Assembly (NCBI GenBank): GCA_018902845.1
Contig: JAHIPV010000004.1
Location: 1-62,375 of the forward strand
DNA: 62,375 nucleotides
DNA from: Patescibacteria group bacterium
GTDB lineage: Bacteria > Patescibacteriota > Microgenomatia > UBA12405
Direction of reading: 5' to 3'
Part shown: positions 10,738 to 62,375 of the stretch, piece after piece
Layout: each line of letters begins with the position of its first letter
How positions within the stretch are numbered: position 1 is the first letter of the stretch
The notes under the pieces: generated by a model
What the model saw: only the letters and a program-made list of their open reading frames with translations
Told to the model about the DNA's origin: nothing
The model's database searches: none
Made by a program: the position numbers and the translations under genes

Positions 10738-11745
10738 TTATTCATCGGTTAAAAGATTAATTCCCAAAAACACATCAATCAATCCAGTACTAAGACTACT
10801 CTTTCCATTAACAAAAAAGTAAGGTATCAATTCTTCTTTTTCACTTAAATATAAATAACCAAAATAACCACTTTCAATTATCGTTCTTTCTATCACTTCT
10901 TCTTGAGAAGATAAGTCAAATTCGCTTGTTCCATCCACATCCAAAACTACAAATTCTTCAGCCTTGCTTAATTCAACTTCTTTCATTGTTTTAATCAAAG
11001 ACATCTCTTCTTTTTTAACAAATTTTGAGGGCAACTTTATTATTAATTTAATTAATTCCCCGTTTTTCGAATACCTTGCAGAAATCGGAGCTCCTTGGTT
11101 ATAAAATATTGGCTGTCCCTCCAAGCTATAAATTAGCTTAAATTCAACAATTTCAGCAGTTTTTTTATCTGATTCTACAAACCTAGGCCCTTTTGTCTTT
11201 TCATATTCAATTTTTATCACACTCAAACCCATTTCTTCTTGTGCCAAAAAACCATTTGATAACAAATCCACCAATTTTTGACTCATTTTATCAACATCTT
11301 CCCACTCTTTTTTACTATCAGTTAGCAGGGGAGATATCAACAGATTCTTACTATATTCGGCCTCCATTTTTTTATTATTAATATGAAAATCAACCGAATC
11401 TTTGTCATCATAAAATACCAATATATTCCCGTCATCTAGTTTGTTTATTTCCCCCTCTAATCCAAGTATCTTGGCTAAATTAATAGCATTTTCATCACTT
11501 ATTACCCTTTCTTTAACTGTATAACGAATAGTTTTTTCCGGCAAAATTATTTCTTCTTCTAGTCCCCAGGATATTTGATTAGGAGCGTTAAAACCACTGG
11601 CTGGTGTAATTGTTGCTACTGGAATTCTTGTTGGGCTGATTTTCACACTTTCCTTGTCACTTTCTTCTTTACTTCCCAGCCTTATAAGTACCAGCAAAAA
11701 TATAAAACCCACCAAAACCAGAATTATTATTGTTTTTTTCTTCAT
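10738..11745 (-). CDS. membrane-anchored hypothetical protein (T4SS-like cluster neighbour)
   Basis: 335-aa ORF with an N-terminal TM helix, 9 nt downstream of the M23 peptidase gene. Confidence 0.55.
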   Translation of the reverse strand: MKKKTIIILVLVGFIFLLVLIRLGSKEESDKESVKISPTRIPVATITPASGFNAPNQISWGLEEEIILPEKTIRYTVKERVISDENAINLAKILGLEGEINKLDDGNILVFYDDKDSVDFHINNKKMEAEYSKNLLISPLLTDSKKEWEDVDKMSQKLVDLLSNGFLAQEEMGLSVIKIEYEKTKGPRFVESDKKTAEIVEFKLIYSLEGQPIFYNQGAPISARYSKNGELIKLIIKLPSKFVKKEEMSLIKTMKEVELSKAEEFVVLDVDGTSEFDLSSQEEVIERTIIESGYFGYLYLSEKEELIPYFFVNGKSSLSTGLIDVFLGINLLTDE

Positions 11746-43965: not shown

Positions 43966-44214
43966 ATGAACAGATATCAAATCTATTTAAACTCAGGCAC
44001 GGTATCTATTTTTGACAACCTTGCCGACGAATTAAACACATCAAGGTCAAGAATTATTCAAGATGTTTTAGATCGCATAGCCATAGAATATAAAAAAATA
44101 CTTAATGTGCAAATTGCCTTAAAAACCAAAAATAATCCATTGCTAAAAATGGCAGGCTTTGCCAAATCAAAAAAAAACAATTTATCCAAGGATGTTGATT
44201 CTATCTACAAATGA
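43966..44214 (+). CDS. ribbon-helix-helix (CopG-like) antitoxin
   Basis: Start moved to MNRYQIYLNSGTV...SRSRIIQDVLDRIA (RHH pattern). 4-nt overlap with the PIN gene. Confidence 0.65.
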   Translation: MNRYQIYLNSGTVSIFDNLADELNTSRSRIIQDVLDRIAIEYKKILNVQIALKTKNNPLLKMAGFAKSKKNNLSKDVDSIYK

Positions 44215-44630
44215 AACACAAAATATTTGTTGACACATGTGCCTGGTTAGCTCATTTTCTAAAAAACGACATTAATCATAAGATAGCAAAAAATTTTCTA
44301 AAACAAGAAATCAAAAAAAATTCGCTTATATGTACATCGAATTATGTTATTGATGAAGCAGTTACCAGACTGAGATACGATAGTGGGTGGTCAAATACCT
44401 CAAAATTTATTGAATTTATCAAAAACAGTATAAAAAGCAATTGTTTAATCGAATTTTTTGTTGATGAACAAATCGAATTGGACAGTTTTAATCTATTAAA
44501 AAAATATACAGACAAGAAATTATCTCTCACGGATGCCAGTATAATCGCTATTTGCAAAAAATATAAAATCCATACAATTTTTACATTCGATTCTGATTTT
44601 CAAAAACTAGGAATTTCAATATCTCCTTAA
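44211..44630 (+). CDS. PIN-domain toxin
   Basis: IFVDTCAWLAHF... and ...SLTDASIIAICKKY...TFDSDF. Confidence 0.8.
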   Translation: MKHKIFVDTCAWLAHFLKNDINHKIAKNFLKQEIKKNSLICTSNYVIDEAVTRLRYDSGWSNTSKFIEFIKNSIKSNCLIEFFVDEQIELDSFNLLKKYTDKKLSLTDASIIAICKKYKIHTIFTFDSDFQKLGISISP

Positions 44631-52502: not shown

Positions 52503-52603
52503 ATGGAGTTGAAAGAGCTGGTTTGGGACGATTTTAATATTATATTGTTACTGCTAGAGACTCTAGTAGTAAAGAAAGGAAATTAATAAATGACCAAAAA
52601 TAA
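52503..52603 (+). pseudogene. brnT: decayed brnT (internal deletion plus frameshift)
   Basis: The ATG frame gives MELKELVWDDFN (compare EFQWDKGN of intact BrnT). A second frame gives IVTARDSSSKERKL (compare RVISARDLNKRR) and ends 14 nt inside brnA, mimicking the intact pair's overlap. Confidence 0.45.
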
Positions 52604-52880
52604 AACAAAAACCATTCCAAATTTCAAAAATCGACAGCAAGAAGCCAAGTTTTGGGACACCCACGATTTTACTGATTTTTTGGATCAAACAAAAAAAGTA
52701 AATTTAAAAGTCAATTTAAAAGCACCGAAAGATGGTGTTTTAACTATTAGACTTCAACCCCAACTAAAAAAACACATGAGTCAACTAGCTACAGAAATGG
52801 GTACCCAAACTTCCACCTTAGCCCGTATGTGGCTTATTGAAAAACTAAAGACATTAACTCCTCCGTATCAGTCAACATAA
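52590..52880 (+). CDS. brnA: BrnA-family antitoxin
   Basis: IPNFKNRQQEAKFWDTHDFTDF... parallels 18818..19087. C-terminal RHH-like STLARMWLIEKL. Confidence 0.7.
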   Translation: MTKNKTKTIPNFKNRQQEAKFWDTHDFTDFLDQTKKVNLKVNLKAPKDGVLTIRLQPQLKKHMSQLATEMGTQTSTLARMWLIEKLKTLTPPYQST

Positions 52881-53047
52881 TTATTTTATCCGAATTCATC
52901 GCTCTGTCCCACCTAGCGGACTTTGTCCGCGCACCGCCGACATAGCCTTTGGCGACGCACGGCCGGAGCCAAGCTTTAGCGAGGCCAAGGCGGTGTTTTT
53001 TGATTGATGTTCGAACATTTTTTGACGAAAACCCCCAATAAGGAAGC

Positions 53048-53195
53048 CAGCCCTGCCGTCGCTCGGAAACCTCGCCACCCCGCAAAAAAGTTTTCTTCAC
53101 AATTTTTGATTTGCGCGCGCCGATTTTTTTCTTCTAAAAGGAAAAGAAAACTTTTGTGCGGGGTTCTGCTCTTAACGAGCAGGACGGCGGGGCTG
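53048..53195. other. 148-nt imperfect long hairpin (left flank of the R-M/RT cassette)
   Basis: CAGCCCTGCCGTCGCTCG (53048-53065) pairs with CGAGCAGGACGGCGGGGCTG (53176-53195). ACCCCGCAAAAAAGTTTTC (53077-53095) pairs with GAAAACTTTTGTGCGGGGT (53146-53164). 50-nt apical loop. Confidence 0.65.
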
Positions 53196-53215
53196 TCCAC
53201 AATTTGATTTCGCTC

Positions 53216-53258
53216 GGGCGTGGCGGAATTCCCCCCAAACCCCCCTTCCGCCACGCCC
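53216..53258. other. perfect 13-bp stem hairpin with C-rich loop
   Basis: GGGCGTGGCGGAA (53216-53228) and TTCCGCCACGCCC (53246-53258). Loop TTCCCCCCAAACCCCCC. Confidence 0.75.
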
Positions 53259-53329
53259 TCGCGGGGACGATTCTTTTTTTCGGCGGAATTTGAGGCTGTG
53301 CCAATTTCATTGGCGCGCCACCTTTTGTC

Positions 53330-54067
53330 TTATTTTATCAGATTCCAATTATCAAGGAAATAGTCCATTTCGTGATCCATATTTCCGAGATATACCTTAT
53401 CATTTCTAAACTTTATATTCACACGATAGCGTTTTCCGTGTCCGACTTCCAAAATTGCTTTTTCGTGTACTTTCTTTTCAACTTCGTGAAATGGCAAAAT
53501 CAAAAAATTACTTTTCTTTTCGCCGTGCAAAACAAAAATATAATAAATATTGCCGTTGCTGTGGCGTTCAAATGATACTTTACGAATATCAAAAACATAA
53601 GTGTCAAAACTATTAAGATTTGAAGTTTTGACCTGAATACCAAACAATTGATTATCTTTGACCGCCACAATGTCCATTCCAACATCTACGCTCATTATGC
53701 TGGCATTGAAACCACGAAAAAGCAATTCGCTACATACCAAATGCTCGCCACCTTTTCCAGTAAATCCTCCAGCGATAACAATTTTTTCTTCCTCCTCTTT
53801 TTCCGCTTCAATAATCTTTGGCGTTTCTTTGATTTCTTTTTTGTTTGGATTGAGCGCAAAAGTTCCGGGCGCGGTTTTGATAAAATCCGAGCCTTCAACT
53901 TTGTTTTTAATATCTACCGTGATTTGTGCGTTCATTGACGCTTCCGGCGTCGCGCCCTCTGTTTCCAAGATGCCAGATTCCAAAGCCAGCCGAGTGATTT
54001 CGGTATAGTGCAAAGGCGTTTTTGCCTTTTTTAATATCTCAATCGCAGATTGCTTGAATGTATTCAT
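53330..54067 (-). CDS. HARE-HTH/Mrr_N-like winged-helix + PD-(D/E)xK nuclease-fold protein
   Basis: N-terminus SAIEILKKAKTPLHYTEITRLALESG...APGTFALN. C-terminus GGEHLVCSELLFRG...VDVGMDIVAV...GIQVKTS (E...D...QxK pattern). 5 nt downstream of the RT gene. Confidence 0.6.
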   Translation of the reverse strand: MNTFKQSAIEILKKAKTPLHYTEITRLALESGILETEGATPEASMNAQITVDIKNKVEGSDFIKTAPGTFALNPNKKEIKETPKIIEAEKEEEEKIVIAGGFTGKGGEHLVCSELLFRGFNASIMSVDVGMDIVAVKDNQLFGIQVKTSNLNSFDTYVFDIRKVSFERHSNGNIYYIFVLHGEKKSNFLILPFHEVEKKVHEKAILEVGHGKRYRVNIKFRNDKVYLGNMDHEMDYFLDNWNLIK

Positions 54068-54072
54068 AAATT

Positions 54073-55575
54073 TTAGCTTTCATAACTAAACACTTGTATT
54101 TCCCTTCTCTCAATTTTAGGCTTAATTTTATCTATAACTGCCCGATTAACAAAAACGCCGTTGCTCAATATATCTTTTACTGTTTTTTCGCTTATCCAGT
54201 CGTTTGTAAATATCTTTTGTTTGTAATCTCCATAAGCATATTTGCAAAGAGTCTCGTCAAAATCTAATTTTAATTTCAATCCAAGCGCGATTCTTTGGAT
54301 CCATATTTCCAACAAACCAGCATTCGAAAGTGTCCCTATTTTTTCTTGGACTCTTACTAATAAATCAAGTTGTGATTGCTTTGACAATTTTGGAATATAG
54401 TCAGACATCAAACCAGCAATGAAAGGAAAACAATTCGGGTTATTGTAACCTATATCAATCAGAATTCCAGTTATTGTTTTTTCTTGGTATTTATAATGTT
54501 CTGATTTAACCACATCTATAATTTTTGATAATCTATTTTTTAGAATTCCTGAGTTAGGAAATTTTTTACCGATTTGTTGAATTATCAATAATTGTCGCAG
54601 CAACTCAGTTTTTGATAGTTTTTTAGGAACCAATCCATACTTTAACGAATCAACTTTATCGTCTTTTATTGAGCCACCAATAATATCTTGATTGAAGCAG
54701 GTTTTGTTTGTATTTAAACGAAAACCTAAATCAAGTAACACCTCGCTAAGACTTTTTAGAATAATATCTCCATCGCTAATGTCGTTAACAAAAATTCGAT
54801 AATCGTCTCGGTATCTTAATATAAAGTATTTTTTACTTTCAATAATTTTATTCAATTTTTTCGATAATTCACAATCCGCATATCCTAGAACAATTTCCGC
54901 AATAAAATCCATTAAACTACTTCCTTCTGGTATACCGTTGGTTTGACCATTATTCATTGCCTGAAGATGACAATCAATCTTATTGCCAAACAACTCATTA
55001 TAACCCCTCTTTTCCTTTCCAATTTTTTTTGTATGTATAGCCCATGGCAAAGAGTGGGTATAAATTGATCCATAGCAACTACTGATATCTGTGTGATATA
55101 TAAACTTATAATCTAGTGCCAACGAAATTGATTTTTTTTCTACATTATTTACCCATTGAGTAATCTGCGCCGCTTTTTGCTTTCTCTTTCCCGACGGTAT
55201 TACAGGCATACTTTCACATCTAATATTTTTAGATTTTTGAAATTCCTTAAAACAATTTTGTAAAAACTTCCAGTTATCTTTTTCAGTTATAATGTTGACC
55301 AGCGAAACATACAACAACGGATTTATAATTTGATACTTTCTCCATGCATATTTACCATCCTTATTGCCGTATAAAATGTGATTTATCGTTTCTTTTTCTT
55401 TTGCTTTATTTAAGTCTGATAAATCTAGTACTTTTTTCTTAAATGCCTTATCGGTAGCAGATAAAACATTTTTAAAAACAAAATAATCGGGTAACTCAAT
55501 ATTTGAAAAAACCTCTTGTGTTAAAAAGAATTTTTTGGCATCTGTGTGATTTAGATTAAGAATATTTTTTGCCAT
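54073..55575 (-). CDS. reverse transcriptase (UG/Abi-like: N-terminal RT domain + about 170-aa helical C-terminal domain)
   Basis: Motif A YHTDISSCYGSI (D163 = 55087-55089), motif B NGIPEGSSLMDFIAEIVL, motif C ILRYRDDYRIF (YRDD = 54802-54813), motif E-like LGFRLNTNKT. Confidence 0.8.
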   Translation of the reverse strand: MAKNILNLNHTDAKKFFLTQEVFSNIELPDYFVFKNVLSATDKAFKKKVLDLSDLNKAKEKETINHILYGNKDGKYAWRKYQIINPLLYVSLVNIITEKDNWKFLQNCFKEFQKSKNIRCESMPVIPSGKRKQKAAQITQWVNNVEKKSISLALDYKFIYHTDISSCYGSIYTHSLPWAIHTKKIGKEKRGYNELFGNKIDCHLQAMNNGQTNGIPEGSSLMDFIAEIVLGYADCELSKKLNKIIESKKYFILRYRDDYRIFVNDISDGDIILKSLSEVLLDLGFRLNTNKTCFNQDIIGGSIKDDKVDSLKYGLVPKKLSKTELLRQLLIIQQIGKKFPNSGILKNRLSKIIDVVKSEHYKYQEKTITGILIDIGYNNPNCFPFIAGLMSDYIPKLSKQSQLDLLVRVQEKIGTLSNAGLLEIWIQRIALGLKLKLDFDETLCKYAYGDYKQKIFTNDWISEKTVKDILSNGVFVNRAVIDKIKPKIERREIQVFSYES

Positions 55576-55577
55576 AT

Positions 55578-56753
55578 TTACAATTCACCGTTAAAAGCCC
55601 TTGCCAAAACAGAAGGCATTAAGGCGGTTGTTATCAAAAATTGTTTTGATCTTTCTTTTTTAATTTCTTCTTTTTTATTTTCAATTAAATTTAAATGATC
55701 AATAACTTTTTGTTGCTCAGCAATTGAATCTGGGAAAGAAAATACTAATTTCTTTATTTTGTCTTGATTAAGAATGGGCAATGTAGTTGCGGGGCATAAA
55801 CCTCTTATTGTTGAATAGTTTGCCTTGAACCAGTAATAAGCAAATTCTGGTAATATATTTTCTTTAAATCTAATTCCTGTAATTTGTTGATTTGAAGTCG
55901 CCTCGTTTTTCAAAATCCCTACTTTTCCAAGAGTTGCGCCTATTCCGATAAATAAAACGGTCCCGGCTTTATAAATTTTTACCTTTCCATCATCAATCGC
56001 GAGTTTAGAAATTTTGCGATATGAATTTTCGAGATACATCTGCCCCTTAAAATCAGAAGGGGTGAACCAATTTAGCTCTTCTTTGAAATATTTTTGTTCG
56101 CCTGATGGTGGGGTTGTTCCTGTCTTAATCTCATCAATCAGATCACCTATTTTTTCTTTTTTCCAACCCGTATCGCTAAAAATTTTACTTAAGGCAGATG
56201 GCACAATAGCATTAACCGCTTTTTCAATATAATTTTCTGCATTGATAATTGATTTAGTGCGTTCCTCAATCTCCTTAATCTTTTTTACAATCCGCTTTTG
56301 TTCAAGAAGTGTTGGAAGCAAAATTTCTTTGTTTAAGAATAGTTCTTCTTGCAAATATCTTCTGTTTGTTGCACCTTGACTGGAAGCAATACAAAATTCT
56401 AAGAATTTAGCAGAGTGAGAAAAGTAAAAGAAAAAATCGGGACTAATTTTTGTTAGATCCAATTCGTAAGCCCAAAAATTACCCGTAATAATTCCACCGT
56501 CAGCTTCTTCGGGGATTATGCCGAAAGCACCGTTCCTAGCGTCGATTTTTGATAGCAATAACCAACCTGCTATAACAGTAAATTGATTTTTTGTTCCTAT
56601 TCTCGATCCAACAACTTCATCTCTCACGCAAATGCCTTTATTGTGCATTTTTATAGTAATGCGCTTGTATGTTTTTTTGTCATCAAGAACAATTGTCTCT
56701 TTTTTTCTGAGAAGAAAATCACTAATTTTATATTGCTTCCAATCGCTTTTCAT
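55578..56753 (-). CDS. hsdS: type I restriction-modification specificity subunit
   Basis: 391 aa with two TRD halves separated and ended by conserved helical spacers (LPTLLEQKRIVKKIKEIE, IAEQQKVIDHLNLIE). 2 nt after hsdM. Confidence 0.85.
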   Translation of the reverse strand: MKSDWKQYKISDFLLRKKETIVLDDKKTYKRITIKMHNKGICVRDEVVGSRIGTKNQFTVIAGWLLLSKIDARNGAFGIIPEEADGGIITGNFWAYELDLTKISPDFFFYFSHSAKFLEFCIASSQGATNRRYLQEELFLNKEILLPTLLEQKRIVKKIKEIEERTKSIINAENYIEKAVNAIVPSALSKIFSDTGWKKEKIGDLIDEIKTGTTPPSGEQKYFKEELNWFTPSDFKGQMYLENSYRKISKLAIDDGKVKIYKAGTVLFIGIGATLGKVGILKNEATSNQQITGIRFKENILPEFAYYWFKANYSTIRGLCPATTLPILNQDKIKKLVFSFPDSIAEQQKVIDHLNLIENKKEEIKKERSKQFLITTALMPSVLARAFNGEL

Positions 56754-56755
56754 AG

Positions 56756-58189
56756 CTATTTAATTAAATCCTTTATCTCCGAAAGTAACGATATTATTGT
56801 TTTTTCTGACTCTTCAATTTTAGCAATTAATTCCTCTGGTGGAAGATGCTCAAACTCCGCTTTTTTGTTCGGATTTTTTACATCAAGATTGTAGTTACTT
56901 TTGATAATTTCCTCTACCGGCACAATCCACGATTGTTCGGTTAATTCTTTCTTTTCCCATAATTTTTTGGCTTCTTCAAAATATACGCTCTTGATTGGCT
57001 TTGATTTTGAAAAGTTTTTTAAACCTTCTGGCAACGGCATTTCATAGTAAAAAATTTCTTTTGTTGGTCCTGTTTTTTCAAAAAATAAAATATTTGTCGG
57101 AATGTTCGTATAAGGTGCGAAAGAACCGTTCGGCAAACGGACGATGTGGTGCAAATTAAATTGCTGAAGCAATTCCTTTTTTGTATTTACATAACTTTGA
57201 TCATCAGTTTTGAATAACACGCCTTCGGGGAAGATAATCGCGCACTTTCCGCCGTCTTTAAGTGAGCGCAAACAATGTTGCAAAAATAAAATCTCGGTTT
57301 GAGCAGAAGGATAAGGAAAATTTGACTCAATACCTCGCACAGTTCCGGAAAATGGCGGATTTGTGAGAATGATGTCATATTTTTCGGTGAGGTTGAAAAG
57401 ATTGATTGAAAGCGTGTTCATTTTACGGATATTTGGTGTAGCGATTCCGTTAAGCATCATATTCATCGTTCCCAAAATAAACGGCAATGATTTTAATTCT
57501 TTTCCATAAAAAGATTCTTTTTGCAAAAATTCTTTATCTTTGGTATTTTTTTCTTGCGGACGCATAAAATGATACGCCTCAGTCAAGAAGCCGGACGGCC
57601 CATTGCAAGGGTCATAAATAGTTTGTCCGATTTTTGGAGATATCATTTCCGTCATAAAACGAGCAATAACGCGCGGAGTGTGAAATTCAGCAAGTGGTTT
57701 AATATCTGACGATTTCATGCGAGCAAAAAGACCTTCGTAAATACTGGAAACTGCGAAAGAATCTTCATCGCCAAAAAAGTCCACACTAGCCAACACATCC
57801 ACAACTTCACGGAGTAAATAGCCGTCTTCCATTCTGTTTTGAGTATTGTTGAAAATTTCTGAAATAATTTCTTTTGTGCGATTGCCGGAAAGAGTGCGAA
57901 AATATGGAAAAAGTTTTATTTGCACAAATTCTAAAAGATCTGGTCCTGTAATATAAGAATCCTTGCCAGTCCACACACTCCAGCGATATTCATTATCAAT
58001 ATTACGGTTGTAGGTTTTGCCTTCAAATGTCGCCTTGGCTTCATATTCGTTTTCTATTTCTTCATATACTTTCAAAAACAAAAGCCACGAAAACTGCTCA
58101 ACATACTGCAAAGCGCCCGTTGTTCCGGGGTCTTGGCGCATTTTATTGCATGCGCTCCATAATTTATTTGAAATTGAATCGTTTGCCAT
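56756..58189 (-). CDS. hsdM: type I restriction-modification DNA methyltransferase subunit (N6-adenine)
   Basis: HsdM_N-type N-terminus (LWSACNKMR), motif I DPCNGPSGFL, and catalytic TNPPFSG. Confidence 0.9.
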   Translation of the reverse strand: MANDSISNKLWSACNKMRQDPGTTGALQYVEQFSWLLFLKVYEEIENEYEAKATFEGKTYNRNIDNEYRWSVWTGKDSYITGPDLLEFVQIKLFPYFRTLSGNRTKEIISEIFNNTQNRMEDGYLLREVVDVLASVDFFGDEDSFAVSSIYEGLFARMKSSDIKPLAEFHTPRVIARFMTEMISPKIGQTIYDPCNGPSGFLTEAYHFMRPQEKNTKDKEFLQKESFYGKELKSLPFILGTMNMMLNGIATPNIRKMNTLSINLFNLTEKYDIILTNPPFSGTVRGIESNFPYPSAQTEILFLQHCLRSLKDGGKCAIIFPEGVLFKTDDQSYVNTKKELLQQFNLHHIVRLPNGSFAPYTNIPTNILFFEKTGPTKEIFYYEMPLPEGLKNFSKSKPIKSVYFEEAKKLWEKKELTEQSWIVPVEEIIKSNYNLDVKNPNKKAEFEHLPPEELIAKIEESEKTIISLLSEIKDLIK

Positions 58190-58202
58190 AGTTTATTTTT
58201 CG

Positions 58203-60695
58203 TTAATTTGCATAAATTTTTTCCTGCAAGCGATCAACATTTTGCCGAAGTGCTTGCGGATTGCCGAAGGCTTTTTGCGAATACATAAAGCCGGGCATTG
58301 GATATACATCAAAAACATTGGCTTTTGTAATTTCCGTTACTCCGTTTTCCTGATATTTCAAAAGCAATCCGCTGACAATTTTTTGCTGTTCCTTATTAAG
58401 ACTTTTCAAAAATTCTTGTTCACGATTTAAGACGGCATCAGTTCTTTCTTTTCGTGAGTGCAGATTTTCGCCAAATCCAAGATTCGCCAAAAGATCGTAT
58501 TCATCGGCTTCGGTATTATTGGTGATTTTGGCAAGCATACGGATATGGATACCTTGATTTTCCAATTCAGTAATAAGCTCGTCTCTGGATTCTTGCTTGA
58601 TCCATTGCGTTTTCAATTCATCAGTATTTTTAACAACTTTTCCAATTTCCTCCTTGGAATAAGCAACATATTCTTTAAGCGTTAGCCTTTTGCCTAAAAT
58701 ATCAACTTCAAACATCATTTCATCCTCAATAAAAACAGTAAGACCATGAACTTTTATCGGCGGAACAGGTTTTTTCTGGGCAACTAGCTCAATTTGAATT
58801 TGCTCCTTGTCGCTTATTTGCGTTTCAATGGTAATTTCTCTGTGCTTGAAGCCGTTTGCCGCCACATAGAGTTTTATTTTCCCTTCCGGAATATTGGAAA
58901 AGCTAAATTCACCGCTTGCGTTTGTTCTTGTTTGCGTTTGCTCATTTGGCGATAATTGAATTGTCATCAAGGCATTTTCAACAGGTGCGAGCGAATCTTC
59001 TTCAACAACAATTCCATTAAGAAAATTGATTTTTGGCGTGTCTGGTTTGATTTCGGGCTTGCCCTCAATCCATTCGTCAATCAATCTTGTGGCATTAGTA
59101 TAATCAATTACCCGATACCAAAATTTGCCTTTTTCTTTTGAAATACGACTACCTCGCCCCATAATCTGTTTGAAAACTATTGGCGAGCGTATCGGCTTCA
59201 TAAAAACAATATTTTGAACTGTGGGCGCGTCAAAACCAGTGGAAAGTAAATCAACAGTAGTGGCAACAACTGGAACATTTTGCGCTTGATCTTGAAAAGT
59301 TTTTAGAAGCGCCAATGAGTCAGTTTCTTCTGAGACAATCCGGATTGCATAATTTGGAAAGCCAAGGTAAGCAAAATGATTTTGTAAATGTTTTGCGACT
59401 TCGCCGGCATGCTCCATGGTTACGCAAAAAACAATTGTTTTTTGCATTTCGCCATAAGTTTTAATGAGTCCGGCAAGATGTTCGCACATTTTCTCGGTTC
59501 TATCTGGCAAAATGATACCTTTTTCAAACTGTTCCATTTTGTAAAAATCATTCGGTTCAGCTTCGTCCGGTATTTCGACTCTCGCTCCTTTTTTAACGGC
59601 ATCTTCAATATTTACTCCATCTTTATCAATATTGAGTTTTACTTTGTGAAGCAAAAAGTTAGCAAGAAACCCATCGTCAATTCCTTGTGCCATGCTGTAA
59701 TCGTAAACGGCCTGATTTTCCTTCTTTGGATCACCGAAATATTTGTAGGTGTTTATATTTTCATCTTGTTTCGGCGTTGCGGTCATTCCAAGCTGAATTG
59801 CTGTTGAAAAATGCTTTAGGATTTCGTTCCAAGTACTAAATCCGCTTCTGTGACACTCATCAATCACAATTAAATCAAAAAAATCTTTGGGATACTGCTC
59901 AAAAATTCTTTTTCCGTCTTTTTCGCTCCACATTGCCTGATAAATACTAAAATAAATGTCGCGAGCCGTTGGAGCTTGCCCCTCTTCAATATATCCACGC
60001 GCATTTCCAAATGGTTCAAAAGTATTAAAGGCCTGATCTCGTAAAACATTTCTATCTGCAAGGAATAAAACACGGCGGATTTTCTTTGCCTGTTTTAATT
60101 TCCAAGCGATTTGAAAAGCTATGTTTGTTTTGCCCGTGCCTGTAGCTAGGTTTAATAAAATCCGCTTTTGACCTTTGGAAATTGCTTCAATTGCACGACG
60201 AATAGCGACTTGCTGATAATAGCGAGGGTTGGTATTGAAAGTTTGTTTATTATAAGCGGTAGCGAGTGGCAAAACTTCTGTTTCGGATAATTCTTTCGCT
60301 TTCAAATATCTTCGATAAAGTTCATCTTGCGTTGGAAAAGTTTCAATTGTTTTTTGTGTGTTGTTTGTAAAATCAAATTCTTCAATTTCGTGTCCATTGG
60401 TAGAATACGCAAAAAGTATATCTAGCCGTTCGGCGTATTCTTTGACTTGTTGCATACCGGAAACGGCGGGCTTTCCTTCTTCCTTTGCTTCAACGACTGC
60501 AAGAGGTAGAGCTTCATTGAAATATAAAATGTAATCGGCTTTTTTTGGTTCTTTTCGTTTTGATTCATCGCCAACGAGAAAAATCTTTCCGTCAGTAAAA
60601 TAATATTCACGAGTAATAAAATCTTCAGTCCAGCCGGACTGTTTTATTTTTGGATCAATTATTTTTGCTCTTGTGTCTGCTTCGTTATATGCCAT
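58203..60695 (-). CDS. hsdR: type I restriction enzyme R subunit (EcoEI-like C-terminus) with an inserted carboxypeptidase-regulatory-like beta-sandwich
   Basis: N-terminal NEADTRAKIIDPKI nuclease region, helicase motifs LATGTGKT / VIDECHR / MTATP / QIMGRGSR. Insert NALMTIQL...TNASGEFSFSNIPEGKIKLYVAANGF (about 58815-59020). Confidence 0.9.
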   Translation of the reverse strand: MAYNEADTRAKIIDPKIKQSGWTEDFITREYYFTDGKIFLVGDESKRKEPKKADYILYFNEALPLAVVEAKEEGKPAVSGMQQVKEYAERLDILFAYSTNGHEIEEFDFTNNTQKTIETFPTQDELYRRYLKAKELSETEVLPLATAYNKQTFNTNPRYYQQVAIRRAIEAISKGQKRILLNLATGTGKTNIAFQIAWKLKQAKKIRRVLFLADRNVLRDQAFNTFEPFGNARGYIEEGQAPTARDIYFSIYQAMWSEKDGKRIFEQYPKDFFDLIVIDECHRSGFSTWNEILKHFSTAIQLGMTATPKQDENINTYKYFGDPKKENQAVYDYSMAQGIDDGFLANFLLHKVKLNIDKDGVNIEDAVKKGARVEIPDEAEPNDFYKMEQFEKGIILPDRTEKMCEHLAGLIKTYGEMQKTIVFCVTMEHAGEVAKHLQNHFAYLGFPNYAIRIVSEETDSLALLKTFQDQAQNVPVVATTVDLLSTGFDAPTVQNIVFMKPIRSPIVFKQIMGRGSRISKEKGKFWYRVIDYTNATRLIDEWIEGKPEIKPDTPKINFLNGIVVEEDSLAPVENALMTIQLSPNEQTQTRTNASGEFSFSNIPEGKIKLYVAANGFKHREITIETQISDKEQIQIELVAQKKPVPPIKVHGLTVFIEDEMMFEVDILGKRLTLKEYVAYSKEEIGKVVKNTDELKTQWIKQESRDELITELENQGIHIRMLAKITNNTEADEYDLLANLGFGENLHSRKERTDAVLNREQEFLKSLNKEQQKIVSGLLLKYQENGVTEITKANVFDVYPMPGFMYSQKAFGNPQALRQNVDRLQEKIYAN

Positions 60696-60699
60696 ATTT

Positions 60700-60900
60700 T
60701 TATTTAAACAATTCTGCCGTCTCCACGCCGAGGGCTTTGGCTAGTTTTTCCAATGTGTCCACCGTAGGATTCGGACTTTCGCCTGTTTCTATCTTAACAA
60801 CGGTATTTAACGCCAAATCAGCGTCTTTTGAGAGGCGATCTTGTGAGATTCCTTTTTTGATTCGCAATTTGCGGATATTTTCGCTAACTGTATTTGCCAT
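60700..60900 (-). CDS. XRE-family helix-turn-helix regulator (controller-protein-like position)
   Basis: 66 aa with IRKLRIKKGISQDRLSKDADLALNTVVKIE (HTH_3). Stop lies 4 nt before the hsdR start. Confidence 0.8.
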   Translation of the reverse strand: MANTVSENIRKLRIKKGISQDRLSKDADLALNTVVKIETGESPNPTVDTLEKLAKALGVETAELFK

Positions 60901-60922
60901 ATTGGTTTGACTTTGATAAACT

Positions 60923-60952
60923 ATTATAATACACTACTTATATTGAGTGTAT
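60923..60952 (-). promoter_or_regulatory. candidate -10 box plus 7-bp-arm palindromic operator upstream of the XRE gene
   Basis: Minus-strand TATAAT (60923-60928). ATACACT (60929-60935) - 10 nt - AGTGTAT (60946-60952). Confidence 0.4.
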
Positions 60953-61134
60953 ATCAACTTGCTTAATACAATGGTATCAAAAATATTAAAATTTGGCAAA
61001 CAAAAAGGGAGTTCATTCGACACAACGCGCGCACGGGTGGGTGGGGCAAGCGTTATTCCTCTTTTATCTTCTCTTTTGTTTTCTGTCCCGCCGTCCGTCC
61101 GCCGAAAAGTTTTGGGGGCGAAGCCAAAGCAGGC

Positions 61135-61175
61135 GGGCAAAAAGGAAGGGGGTTGGGGGGAAGGAATTTTTGCCC
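61135..61175. other. 9-bp stem hairpin with G-rich loop (mirror of 53216..53258)
   Basis: GGGCAAAAA (61135-61143) and TTTTTGCCC (61167-61175). Loop GGAAGGGGGTTGGGGGGAAGGAA. Confidence 0.7.
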
Positions 61176-61194
61176 TTTTGCGATTCAGAATAGA

Positions 61195-61349
61195 GCGTTT
61201 CCGCTTTTCTCTGATTAAGAGAAAACCAAAACAGAAAATTTTTCATCTCCTATTAAAAGAAAAAAATGGGGTGCAGAAAAAAATAAAAAATGTAATGAAA
61301 AAATTTCTGTTTTGGTTTGCCGTAGAGGAGCGGAGGCAAGCGGAAACGC
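61195..61349. other. 155-nt imperfect long hairpin (right flank of the R-M/RT cassette)
   Basis: GCGTTTCCGCTT (61195-61206) pairs with AAGCGGAAACGC (61338-61349). AAACCAAAACAGAAAATTTTTCAT (61223-61246) pairs with ATGAAAAAATTTCTGTTTTGGTTT (61295-61318) at 23/24 positions. 48-nt A-rich apical loop. Confidence 0.7.
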
Positions 61350-61684
61350 ACATCATTATTCTGGATTCTGTTCAAAAAAAGTTAGAATTTCAACCAAAAG
61401 GTACCGCCATGAAAAAATCAGAGTATGACCTCTGGTTTTTTCATTTATGATGATATTAGTTGTGATGGAAGAAGGTGGGAATATGGTATGATGCAAATAT
61501 ATGACAAATGGAGAAGTTACAATGAACGAACTCATGGATTTTTTGGTGGAAAATGTGGCTACCAACAGAGATGCATCAGATGGAACATCGGATATTGGAT
61601 ACCATTTCTACATTTAATGGCGTAGAATTATAATTTTATTCACAGACCACCTCACGTATATTTTCTTACCCTGACGATACCGCA

Positions 61685-61722
61685 GACCCCCGGCGGAGCC
61701 TGGCCTGGCTCCGCCGGGGGTC
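61685..61722. terminator. perfect 16-bp GC-rich stem-loop in the GC-rich terminal segment
   Basis: GACCCCCGGCGGAGCC / GGCTCCGCCGGGGGTC with a 6-nt loop. No clear U-tract. Two further GC hairpins at about 61779-61808 and 61836-61872, downstream of the minus-strand ORF. Confidence 0.35.
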
Positions 61723-61906
61723 TTCTCGAGAAGATCCCTCACTTTGTTCGGGATGGGAAAAGAAATAAAATGCGAACGCCCCCGGTGTACTCGGTACACA
61801 CGGGGGCGTAAGGTTAGGGGGAAGGAACTTGGTGTGGCAGGTACTGCGGGTTTGGACCGCAGACCTGCCACGAGATGAGGTAGTTTGCCCCTGACGCGCC
61901 AGCGGG

Positions 61907-62375
61907 TTAGAACCGCTGGGTGCCGAATCCGATGAGGGTGTAACCCCCCATCGGGATATCGTTCCCGGCCGGGTGCTTGCGCACCGCAGCCAACACGTCG
62001 CTCGCCTGCACCACGGCACCGTTGGCCGTGCAGCGGCCGATGCCGTCCTGCGTGGCCCCGCGGAGCTCCACGACCTGGTACACACCATCGATCCCCGAGG
62101 GGATGGTGGTGTGCACGAGGGTGCCGGTGTTGATCACCGACCCCTCGTTCCAGGCGTCGGCGCACATCACGGCGCCGTTGAGGACGCCTCCGTCCATGAC
62201 GACGGTGGCCACGGGTGCGGGCGGGGTGCGGGTGCTCCACCAGGCGGTCAGACCGCCGATGGCGCCGGCGCACACCAGGCCCAGGAGGGCCAGGAGCAGG
62301 GCGAGGGCGATCAGGCCGGCGCAGCCCATCCAGCGCCGGTTGTTGCGGGGGGGCGGGGGGGGCTGGTCCACGACG
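61907..62375 (-). CDS. partial membrane-anchored hypothetical protein from a high-GC source (5' end may run off the window)
   Basis: Frame with the sensible composition: TM helix GCAGLIALALLLALLGLVCAG, then a Gly/Val/Thr-rich domain. The competing overlapping frames are Arg-rich high-GC artefacts. Confidence 0.45.
   Translation of the reverse strand, partial: VVDQPPPPPRNNRRWMGCAGLIALALLLALLGLVCAGAIGGLTAWWSTRTPPAPVATVVMDGGVLNGAVMCADAWNEGSVINTGTLVHTTIPSGIDGVYQVVELRGATQDGIGRCTANGAVVQASDVLAAVRKHPAGNDIPMGGYTLIGFGTQRF

Follow-up and report, generated by a model that had tools for sequence, protein, structure and literature searches.

The contig JAHIPV010000004.1 of a Patescibacteria group bacterium (assembly GCA_018902845.1), analyzed here over its 62,375 nt and referred to as the window, carries a cluster of six minus-strand genes in which a type I restriction-modification (R-M) system is followed by a reverse transcriptase (RT) and a nuclease. 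An earlier note made from the sequence alone had described six minus-strand open reading frames (ORFs) separated by 4, 13, 2, 2 and 5 nt from the first gene to the last, and we recovered the same ORFs and gaps. The cluster opens with a 66-aa XRE-family helix-turn-helix (HTH) protein (60700-60900; HTH_3, 1.8e-14; PADLOC Control_protein, 1e-10), which is followed by an 830-aa HsdR of the EcoAI/FtnUII family, type IB (58203-60695; NCBIfam equivalog NF046051, 731 bits with a cutoff of 550), a 477-aa HsdM N6-adenine methyltransferase (MTase) (56756-58189; N6_Mtase, 6.7e-57; HsdM_N; PADLOC MTase_I, 8e-146) and a 391-aa HsdS specificity subunit with two target-recognition domains (55578-56753; Methylase_S in two stretches). 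The last two genes encode a 500-aa RT-like polymerase of the AbiP2 family (54073-55575; RVT_1; PADLOC AbiP2, 9.6e-169), which is the cargo of a variable slot described below, and a 245-aa protein that joins a HARE-HTH domain to a PD-(D/E)xK nuclease of the D...QxK form (53330-54067; HARE-HTH, 1.9e-18; PDDEXK_5 below threshold). The Pfam, PADLOC and NCBIfam domain calls agree with the note's reading of the first four genes as a regulator plus a complete type I system, in which an HsdR above the curated cutoff is clustered on one strand with an HsdM and an HsdS of two domains. The note had also called the RT embedded, and it does lie inside the cassette, but it follows hsdS and precedes the nuclease instead of lying among the hsd genes. 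Between its helicase and EcoEI_R_C domains, HsdR has an Ig-like β-sandwich insert of the CarboxypepD_reg type (residues 559-638, window 58782-59021), which makes it longer than the EcoAI-family model.

It is plausible that the six genes form one transcription unit. A consensus scan of the region found no convincing internal minus-strand terminator, and its 15 terminator-like sites compare with 10.1 ± 2.9 expected from shuffles; because the promoter and terminator scan is barely above the shuffled expectation, it gives little information on operon structure. The same scan placed minus-strand promoter-like sites at 60999-60971 and 60953-60926, within the right repeat region. The small HTH gene stands at the 5′ end of the operon, as in R-M systems run by a controller (C) protein, and XRE homologs that are 52-58% identical head the cassettes in five of the comparison loci, which are given here as L numbers (L093, L098, L121, L128 and L139). 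We suggest that the 66-aa protein is probably the C protein of the operon. Scans of the window for tRNA genes and Rfam families returned no match, and thus no noncoding RNA partner is indicated for the RT.

The six genes lie between two ORF-free, GC-richer flanks that are mutually inverted, about 340 nt long and about 75% identical, and that bound a cassette at 52,989-61,408. Mapping by repeats, homology and motifs placed the left terminal inverted repeat, which is non-coding and GC-richer, at 52989-53329, with an outer terminus motif at 52989-53025 (GGCGGTGTTTTTTGATTGATGTTCGAACATTTTTTGA on the plus strand) and internal hairpins at 53048-53097/53144-53195 and 53211-53228/53246-53263. The right terminal inverted repeat (60901-61408) includes the probable promoter region of the operon and ends in the terminus motif at 61372-61408, with 8 substitutions relative to the left copy. 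This 37-nt terminus (…TCAAAAAATGTTCGAACATCAATCAAAAAACACCGCC) is common to both flanks and to L096, L118, L120, L128 and L138; similarity breaks off sharply past it, and the sequence outside differs in every locus. The flanks as a whole are homologous to those of nuclease cassettes in more than 12 other loci. Immediately after the nuclease stop codon is a stem-loop (53300-53314, GCCAAT/ATTGGC) whose pairing is kept in other loci with changed sequence (GCCAGTT/AACTGGC and GCCAGC/GCTGGC), and in which homology to the window ends in L162 (at 53307) and in L164 (at 53299). This stem-loop could be a terminator or a recombination site.

Strains differ in what they carry at this position. We compared contigs that share an identical copy of a solitary CopG-antitoxin-like gene (52590-52880), located just outside the left end of the cassette at the island border, and whose backbones are 99.9-100% identical. 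The window's cassette is present in L163, L165 and L167. The left repeat of L164 matches at 100% identity as far as 53,299; beyond that point comes another cassette, which runs the opposite way and has an XRE gene, an MTase gene and a 299-aa gene at its head, a type also found in L121, L128 and L139. L169 and L170 carry no cassette: they are 99.9% identical to the window up to 52,993, which is 4 nt inside the terminus at 52989, and then continue into a minus-strand tRNA-Ser(CGA) gene. The repeat terminus and the 3′ end of the tRNA-Ser(CGA) gene of the cassette-free strain share the sequence GGCGG (52989-52993). The empty site has its breakpoint at the end of the element and the tRNA 3′ end as its target, as in an integrative island. 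The bounded, strain-variable cassette at a tRNA gene was missed by the earlier note and is new here. Eight kb from the CopG-like gene, a PIN-domain gene and its 82-aa upstream partner form a VapBC-like pair (43966-44630).

In the sister contig L163, the right terminus (the equivalent of 61482) is followed by a gene for a large serine recombinase, divergent from XRE, with Resolvase, Recombinase and Zn_ribbon_recom domains and a match to the phrog_95 integrase profile at 3.6e-70. This gene lies outside the window, and an integrase gene is likewise found at the cassette edge in L118, L128, L100, L082 and other loci. Integrase homologs flank the cassettes of 10 further nuclease loci, on either side and in three of the four possible relative orientations. 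The integrase gene of L128 is 94% identical and is bracketed by a 128-nt near-perfect inverted repeat of its own, which meets the cassette terminus at one end (…CACCGCC|AAGTTTTAC…) and tRNA-Ser at its other end (…GTAAAACTT|GGCGGAGAG…). The inverted repeats around the integrase genes of L128 (4341-6080) and L118 (1-1721) measure 118-128 nt, with exactly 1485 nt between the arms. Four types of site can be recognized around one GGCGG core, namely attB-like, attL-like, attR-like and an internal inverted attP-like site. The right junction lies beyond the contigs of the window's strain, and the equivalent junction is present in L128. The natural reading is that the serine integrase integrated the island at tRNA-Ser, and inversion or recombinase-mediated cassette exchange, as a hypothesis, would fit the polymorphism among strains.

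We considered whether the inverted repeats could be assembly artefacts. The integrase repeats of L147, L118 and L128 and the repeats of the window are internal to contigs. Some arms do lie at the ends of metagenomic contigs (L128, L130 and L139), which is expected at repeats and weakens those cases. The window departs from the 99.99% identical contig L163 (GCA_018895715.1) after 61,175, inside the right repeat, and differs from it over 61176-62375; its last ~700 nt have 60-77% GC compared with ~35% elsewhere. Assembly probably joined two different sequences at the repeat, which would make the window's right end chimeric, and therefore the right terminus at 61,408 may belong to another copy of the repeat. 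Over almost the entire window (positions 1-50000) the GC skew is persistently negative, at -0.2 to -0.5 per kb, far stronger than the usual replication skew.

Within the cassette, the nuclease is the constant member. We compared about 80 nuclease loci, ~70 of them from genomes other than the window's. Where upstream sequence is available, the nuclease gene almost always comes last or nearly last in a set of co-directional genes spaced 1-16 nt apart. The gene directly upstream may be hsdR or hsdS of a type I system, a 1268-aa fused MTase-specificity protein, a Dam-like type II methyltransferase (14 loci), a type III Res, a T5orf172-ResIII protein, or a known or candidate single-gene defense, and GmrSD/methylase is also among the systems in front of it. 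As a general rule, then, the usual place of the nuclease in Patescibacteria is at the end of an R-M operon, which may be of type I, II, IIG-like or III. It is 75-96% identical at a fixed 245 aa across many lineages of the group, far above the conservation of its surroundings. We rejected the idea of a housekeeping anchor beside a hotspot, as synteny is kept on neither side of the nuclease across loci.

Comparison of sister cassettes located the variable part. L162 matches the window at 96% (hsdR), 95% (hsdM) and 96% (nuclease) identity and has a protease in place of the RT; its DNA is ~90% identical over 60756-56756 and 54068-53307, and between these blocks only the middle of hsdS is alike. 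The hsdS gene is variable among sister loci generally, with only the central conserved region matching in L162, L095 and L151. Sister cassettes whose hsdR, hsdM and nuclease DNA is about 90% identical trade the RT for an unrelated gene (protease, Shedu or Schlafen-like), while their nucleases stay 91-96% identical. In place of the AbiP2 RT of the window, the slot in front of the nuclease contains a 296-aa trypsin-like protease in L162 (5459-6349), L098 and four other loci, Shedu SduA in L151, a Schlafen/AlbA_2 protein (PDC-S19-like) in L100, a 199-aa orphan of no family in L095 (2142-2741) and L154, and DUF2130 in 3 loci (L103, 308-1528); in some loci it is empty. The protease, the 199-aa orphan and DUF2130 are candidates for defense genes through guilt-by-embedding. 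The protease, across its 6 loci, gives weak PADLOC matches to the retron-XI protease and LmuA. Judged from these alignments, hsdS and the cargo slot are one swappable segment between a conserved hsdM and a conserved nuclease, with AbiP2 as one of several alternative cargos.

Based on the bounded ends, the strain polymorphism and the exchangeable slot, we propose that the locus is a modular, horizontally exchanged defense cassette of Patescibacteria (the candidate phyla radiation, CPR) rather than a type I enzyme into which an RT/nuclease system has been built, a reading to which we assign a probability of roughly 0.6. Three separately evolving modules would be stacked in one probable operon under the C-type XRE regulator. 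The EcoAI-family R-M system would methylate self DNA and cut unmodified incoming DNA, and AbiP2, in the slot after hsdS, would abort infection by phages that escape restriction, as suggested by homology to Abi-P2; its placement would let it share the transcription and transfer of the R-M operon. The HARE-HTH nuclease may act on DNA beyond the reach of the R-M system, such as modified or structured DNA. The cassette sits where tRNA-Ser ends, next to a large serine integrase gene of the phage type, and near-identical strains have another cassette or none; integration, inversion or exchange by the integrase would fit this.

A broader possibility is that the whole arrangement is a defense-shuffling platform, in which the integrase acts on GGCGG-core sites at tRNA-Ser and the nuclease is a universal partner of R-M systems. 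The integrase would integrate, invert and exchange R-M-plus-cargo cassettes through sites that bracket both the integrase gene and the cassette, and the nuclease would be a new type IV-like enzyme or would guard or propagate the cassette. Serine-integrase islands and defense-cargo platforms such as pipolins (PMC11551731) and the P2/P4 hotspots are similar in their integration at a tRNA, an empty site in a sister strain and variable defense cargo. They differ in that the cassette and the integrase here each have long inverted repeats of their own that meet at the GGCGG core, and in that an inverted attP-like site persists inside the integrated island. The Mu G segment with Gin is an invertible segment next to a serine recombinase, and the cassette resembles it, being a segment between inverted repeats with a recombinase gene immediately beyond them. 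We regard this platform as possible, although somewhat on the unlikely side.

For the nuclease, the sequence and the predicted structure can be set side by side. The note had described a winged-helix domain joined to a restriction-endonuclease fold, and this assignment holds: the HARE-HTH match is clear, an AlphaFold model built with a 51-sequence alignment reached a mean pLDDT of 93.4, and Foldseek placed the C-terminal domain nearest to I-Ssp6803I (2ost, E 8e-6), followed by the SPARDA nuclease and archaeal Hjc, with Eco15I, DpnI and PvuII farther off. This model superseded a first one made from 20 near-identical sequences (pLDDT 61, core below 50), with which Foldseek was uninformative save for an RNA polymerase δ-like match of the HARE-HTH domain. 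Pfam PDDEXK_5 scores 19.4-21.2 bits, under its cutoff of 26.1, Mrr_cat_2 reaches only E 0.13, and a sequence search of the PDB gave no match. The 51 aligned proteins (28-68% identity) are invariant only at E108, D128, D132 and Q145-V146-K147, a D...Q-x-K pattern that represents a variant of the PD-(D/E)xK site. The protein combines a DNA-reader domain with a nuclease whose catalytic residues are intact. A profile search of 1.84 billion representatives returned 75 clusters (at 50% identity) at E ≤ 1e-30, mostly of the same architecture, and use of the C-terminal domain alone as the query added no further nuclease diversity.

For HARE-HTH, a domain treated by Aravind and Iyer in 2012, a role as a reader of modified DNA has been proposed, according to a secondary citation. 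The methyltransferases beside the nuclease belong nearly all to amino-methyltransferase families (N6_Mtase, D12-class, N6_N4 and EcoRI-type), and no C5 methylase occurs inside the nuclease-bearing cassettes; a reader of cytosine modification would therefore not conflict with them. In the E. coli immigration control region, hsdRMS lies beside mrr and mcrBC. By analogy, we suggest that the nuclease is most likely a stand-alone reader-nuclease that would complement the R-M system as Mrr or McrBC do beside hsd. As in that region, and in BrxU with BREX, a modification-blind R-M system would stand beside a reader-plus-nuclease possibly covering phages with modified DNA, and the D...QxK motif is similar to that of Mrr. 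Unlike the E. coli arrangement, the nuclease of the window is operonic with the R-M genes and matches no known type IV model, for which reason we rejected its assignment to a known type IV family.

The same structural matches leave room for a different role, in which the nuclease would be a mobility or recombination factor of the cassette, homing-endonuclease-like or junction-resolving, that helps the variable DNA next to it to spread or be exchanged. Its top structural matches are I-Ssp6803I and the Hjc resolvases, its gene stands at the cassette edge by hairpin-rich inverted repeats, and homology breaks exactly at its start codon (54068) and at the stem-loop after its stop (53299-53307), while the gene itself is far more conserved than what surrounds it. 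However, most nuclease loci have no flanking inverted repeats, the serine integrase already explains integration, and the tight operonic link to many kinds of methyltransferase fits a defense related to DNA modification better. The SPARDA defense nuclease is, moreover, an equally good structural match. Overall, I-Ssp6803I (PDDEXK_5), Hjc and SPARDA DREN resemble the C-terminal fold (Foldseek E 8e-6 to 1e-4, target TM 0.55-0.70), with a weak PDDEXK_5 match, and they differ in that the nuclease of the window has an N-terminal HARE-HTH domain, no intron context and no Argonaute partner; compared with (D/E)xK enzymes, Q replaces the acidic residue. We did not retain two more specific versions of this idea. 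Membership in the I-Ssp6803I-like homing endonuclease family was rejected, with PDDEXK_5 under its cutoff and a free-standing gene, although the likeness in fold is real, and a role as the transposase of the repeat-bounded unit was downgraded, with most nuclease loci lacking repeats and a serine integrase present. We consider a mobility function for the nuclease unlikely.

We return to the modular cassette and its cargo in the window, the RT. The note had assigned it to the UG/Abi class with intact motifs, and both statements can be made more specific. The PADLOC AbiP2 profile, from the PADLOC run that the note had proposed, matches the RT end to end at E 9.6e-169 (residues 2-499 on profile positions 4-486), and the next-best RT profile, Drt6, follows at 3.7e-55, with UG14 and Drt4 likewise far behind. 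The founding AbiP2 of phage P2-EC30 aligns at 34% identity over 99% of the protein. The closest solved structure is Abi-P2 itself (PDB 7R08; phmmer E 2.7e-69), with RT residues 3-456 aligned to 33-487 across the polymerase and C-terminal helical domains. Residues D163, G214/P216/G218/S219, R254-D257-D258-Y259 and K291 are invariant among 31 homologs, in line with an intact catalytic site. A group II intron RT was rejected (group_II_RT_mat, only 36.7 bits with a cutoff of 300), Rfam found no intron, msr/msd or diversity-generating retroelement (DGR) RNA in the window, and the RT falls outside the group II intron, retron and DGR clades, membership of which the note had named as grounds against its own proposal. 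On the strength of these alignments the RT can be taken as a full-length AbiP2. Among its homologs, identity falls off fast, from 85%, 77% and 72% to about 65%.

E. coli Abi-P2 is a trimeric, template-independent DNA polymerase of the protein-priming Abi family (Figiel et al. 2022, PMC9508834), and AbiP2 is regarded as a multi-domain stand-alone defense protein that acts alone in E. coli (Mestre et al. 2022, PMC9226505). By analogy, the RT of the window may make protein-primed, template-independent DNA and cause abortive infection. It resembles AbiP2 of P2-like prophages (UG/Abi class 1; Odegrip 2006, Mestre 2022, Figiel 2022) from end to end as a single polypeptide of ~500 aa. It differs from the E. 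coli protein in being only 33-34% identical and in residing in an R-M operon of Patescibacteria instead of a P2 prophage hotspot, and its closest clade usually has a Cas4-like nuclease downstream that is not described for AbiP2.

The note had asked whether hsd genes recur beside relatives of the RT, and they do. The proteins of the window were used to search 80 genomic loci carrying RT relatives (the top 80, a few near-duplicates included), in which, as in the other comparison loci, genes were called crudely as longest ORFs. Homologs of hsd genes occur in 28 of the 80 loci, every match on the strand of the RT, and they lie upstream on that strand in 24 of the 54 loci that have at least 3 kb of upstream sequence. 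In a Pfam census of the two genes upstream of the RT, Methylase_S came first (21 of 121 genes), then ResIII (8) and N6_Mtase (6). HsdR is among the two genes downstream of the RT in 8 loci, and a complete hsdM/hsdS-RT-hsdR order was seen by tblastn in L060, L061, L062 and L078. L003, from a Nomurabacteria genome with an RT that is 65% identical, has the same order as the window, with an integrase gene followed by XRE-hsdR-hsdM-hsdS-RT. At least two HsdR families are represented among the linked proteins, EcoAI-type in the window and HSDR_N/T1RH-like_C elsewhere, and therefore the arrangement arose, or was kept, in different type I backgrounds. The association extends across many phyla, and we conclude that the data support a genetic coupling of this RT family with type I hsd genes.

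This linkage could mean that AbiP2, without the nuclease, has a functional tie to the type I enzyme and serves as a second line that detects phage anti-restriction or a failure of the R-M system. Consistent with such coupling are the co-directional hsd genes in all 28 loci, HsdS as the commonest upstream neighbor, HsdR downstream in at least 8 loci, the breadth of phyla and HsdR families, and the precedent of PrrC, which is almost exclusively embedded in type I R-M systems (Payne et al. 2024). However, more than half of the RT loci have no hsd gene nearby, and the founding AbiP2 resides in a hotspot of P2 prophages and functions as a one-gene system. Type I loci also host many unrelated embedded genes, so operon hitch-hiking accounts for the pattern, and in relatives from the CPR this RT instead comes after type III Res or C5-methylase genes. 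Embedded defense genes are common in type I loci (Payne et al. 2024), with TgvAB in V. cholerae VPI-2 as a worked example, and the methods of the Mestre 2021 preprint already refer to defense genes operonized with or embedded in type I R-M. The hsd-RT arrangement is thus of an already published kind. In the portions of the text and supplements of Payne et al. 2024 that were searched, we found no mention of AbiP2, and in the supplements none of DRT or RVT. PrrC/EcoprrI, the Campylobacter rlo genes, TgvAB and the other 'guilt-by-embedding' cases of Payne 2024 share with the window a recurrent non-R-M defense gene co-directional with hsd. They differ in that the RT follows hsdS at the operon end instead of lying between hsd genes, and the protein is a polymerase and not an anticodon nuclease as in the PrrC-type guard. 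We consider it quite unlikely that AbiP2 is coupled in function to the type I enzyme.

The note itself had gone further and proposed that the RT and the nuclease form a pair, and the locus comparison went against this. Of the 80 RT loci, only 2 have a HARE-HTH nuclease gene close by, which lies 1.7 kb downstream of the RT in L006 and immediately upstream of it in L008, where the order is R-M, HARE-HTH nuclease, RT and Cas4-like gene; no RT was found in any of the ~70 independent HARE-HTH nuclease loci. The partner that does recur is a Cas4/RecB-like PDDEXK_1 protein of 249 aa with Cys (CxxC) motifs. Of the 14 closest RT loci, 10 (L003-L011 and L014; L003, 11513-12262) encode it directly downstream from the RT, after a gap of 5-9 nt, with the gene split in L004. 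The Cas4-like gene also adjoins the HARE-HTH gene without any RT in L110 (7371-8111), L152 and L084, and the window has no trace of it. The idea of an RT-nuclease pair therefore has some basis in the clade of the RT, but with the Cas4-like protein. In L001, whose RT is 85% identical, ~47 nt of the 5′ end of a HARE-HTH gene (11498-11555) follow the RT and precede a GmrSD_N gene, a remnant of an RT-nuclease junction like that of the window.

We therefore find it improbable that the RT and the HARE-HTH nuclease are a two-gene effector that, like PrrC with EcoprrI, is genetically and physically coupled to the type I enzyme and fires when R-M is inhibited: the 2-nt and 5-nt gaps around the RT, its recurrence just after hsdS, the HARE-HTH protein filling the position that the Cas4-like PD-(D/E)xK nuclease has in close relatives and the L001 remnant would agree with it, but the nuclease is found without the RT in about 70 independent loci behind every type of R-M, the RT is without the nuclease in 78 of 80 loci, L008 has the reverse order and an RT with its own Cas4-like partner, sister cassettes replace the RT and keep the nuclease, and AbiP2 is reported to function by itself in E. 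coli.

Several observations count against a modular cassette of independent layers. An hsd linkage of 44% is high enough to make a real functional coupling of AbiP2 with type I systems a serious possibility. The closest relatives of the RT (61-65% identity) nearly always have the Cas4-like nuclease directly downstream, and an RT without it might need a substitute partner. No PADLOC model, including mREase_IV, and no NCBIfam model matched the nuclease, and with a homing endonuclease and junction resolvases as its nearest folds, a mobility or recombination role is a live rival. Cassettes flanked by inverted repeats were found in 3 of 47 nuclease loci in a systematic test, in addition to L118, L139 and the window's strain, so that the repeat-flanked form is a feature of a sub-lineage. 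The right end of the island lies outside the window, whose last 1.2 kb differ from the sister contig L163, and co-transcription is deduced from gene spacing alone.

Each component of the cassette is of a known kind. As far as could be found, the cargo slot marked by the nuclease, the linkages of AbiP2 to hsdS and to the Cas4-like gene, and the double inverted-repeat architecture have not been described. Patescibacteria have tiny genomes and few recognized defenses, and the cassette suggests that these bacteria stack R-M, abortive infection and nuclease layers in one compact, exchangeable unit. The linkages of AbiP2 to hsdS and to the Cas4-like gene refine the picture of AbiP2 as a purely stand-alone protein, and the double inverted repeats around the serine integrase offer a testable model for the flipping and swapping of cassettes between strains. 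The conserved nuclease gene marks a cargo slot that could be mined for new defense genes, and the HARE-HTH nuclease family, with about 75 experimentally uncharacterized clusters, is a candidate for a new restriction-type enzyme.

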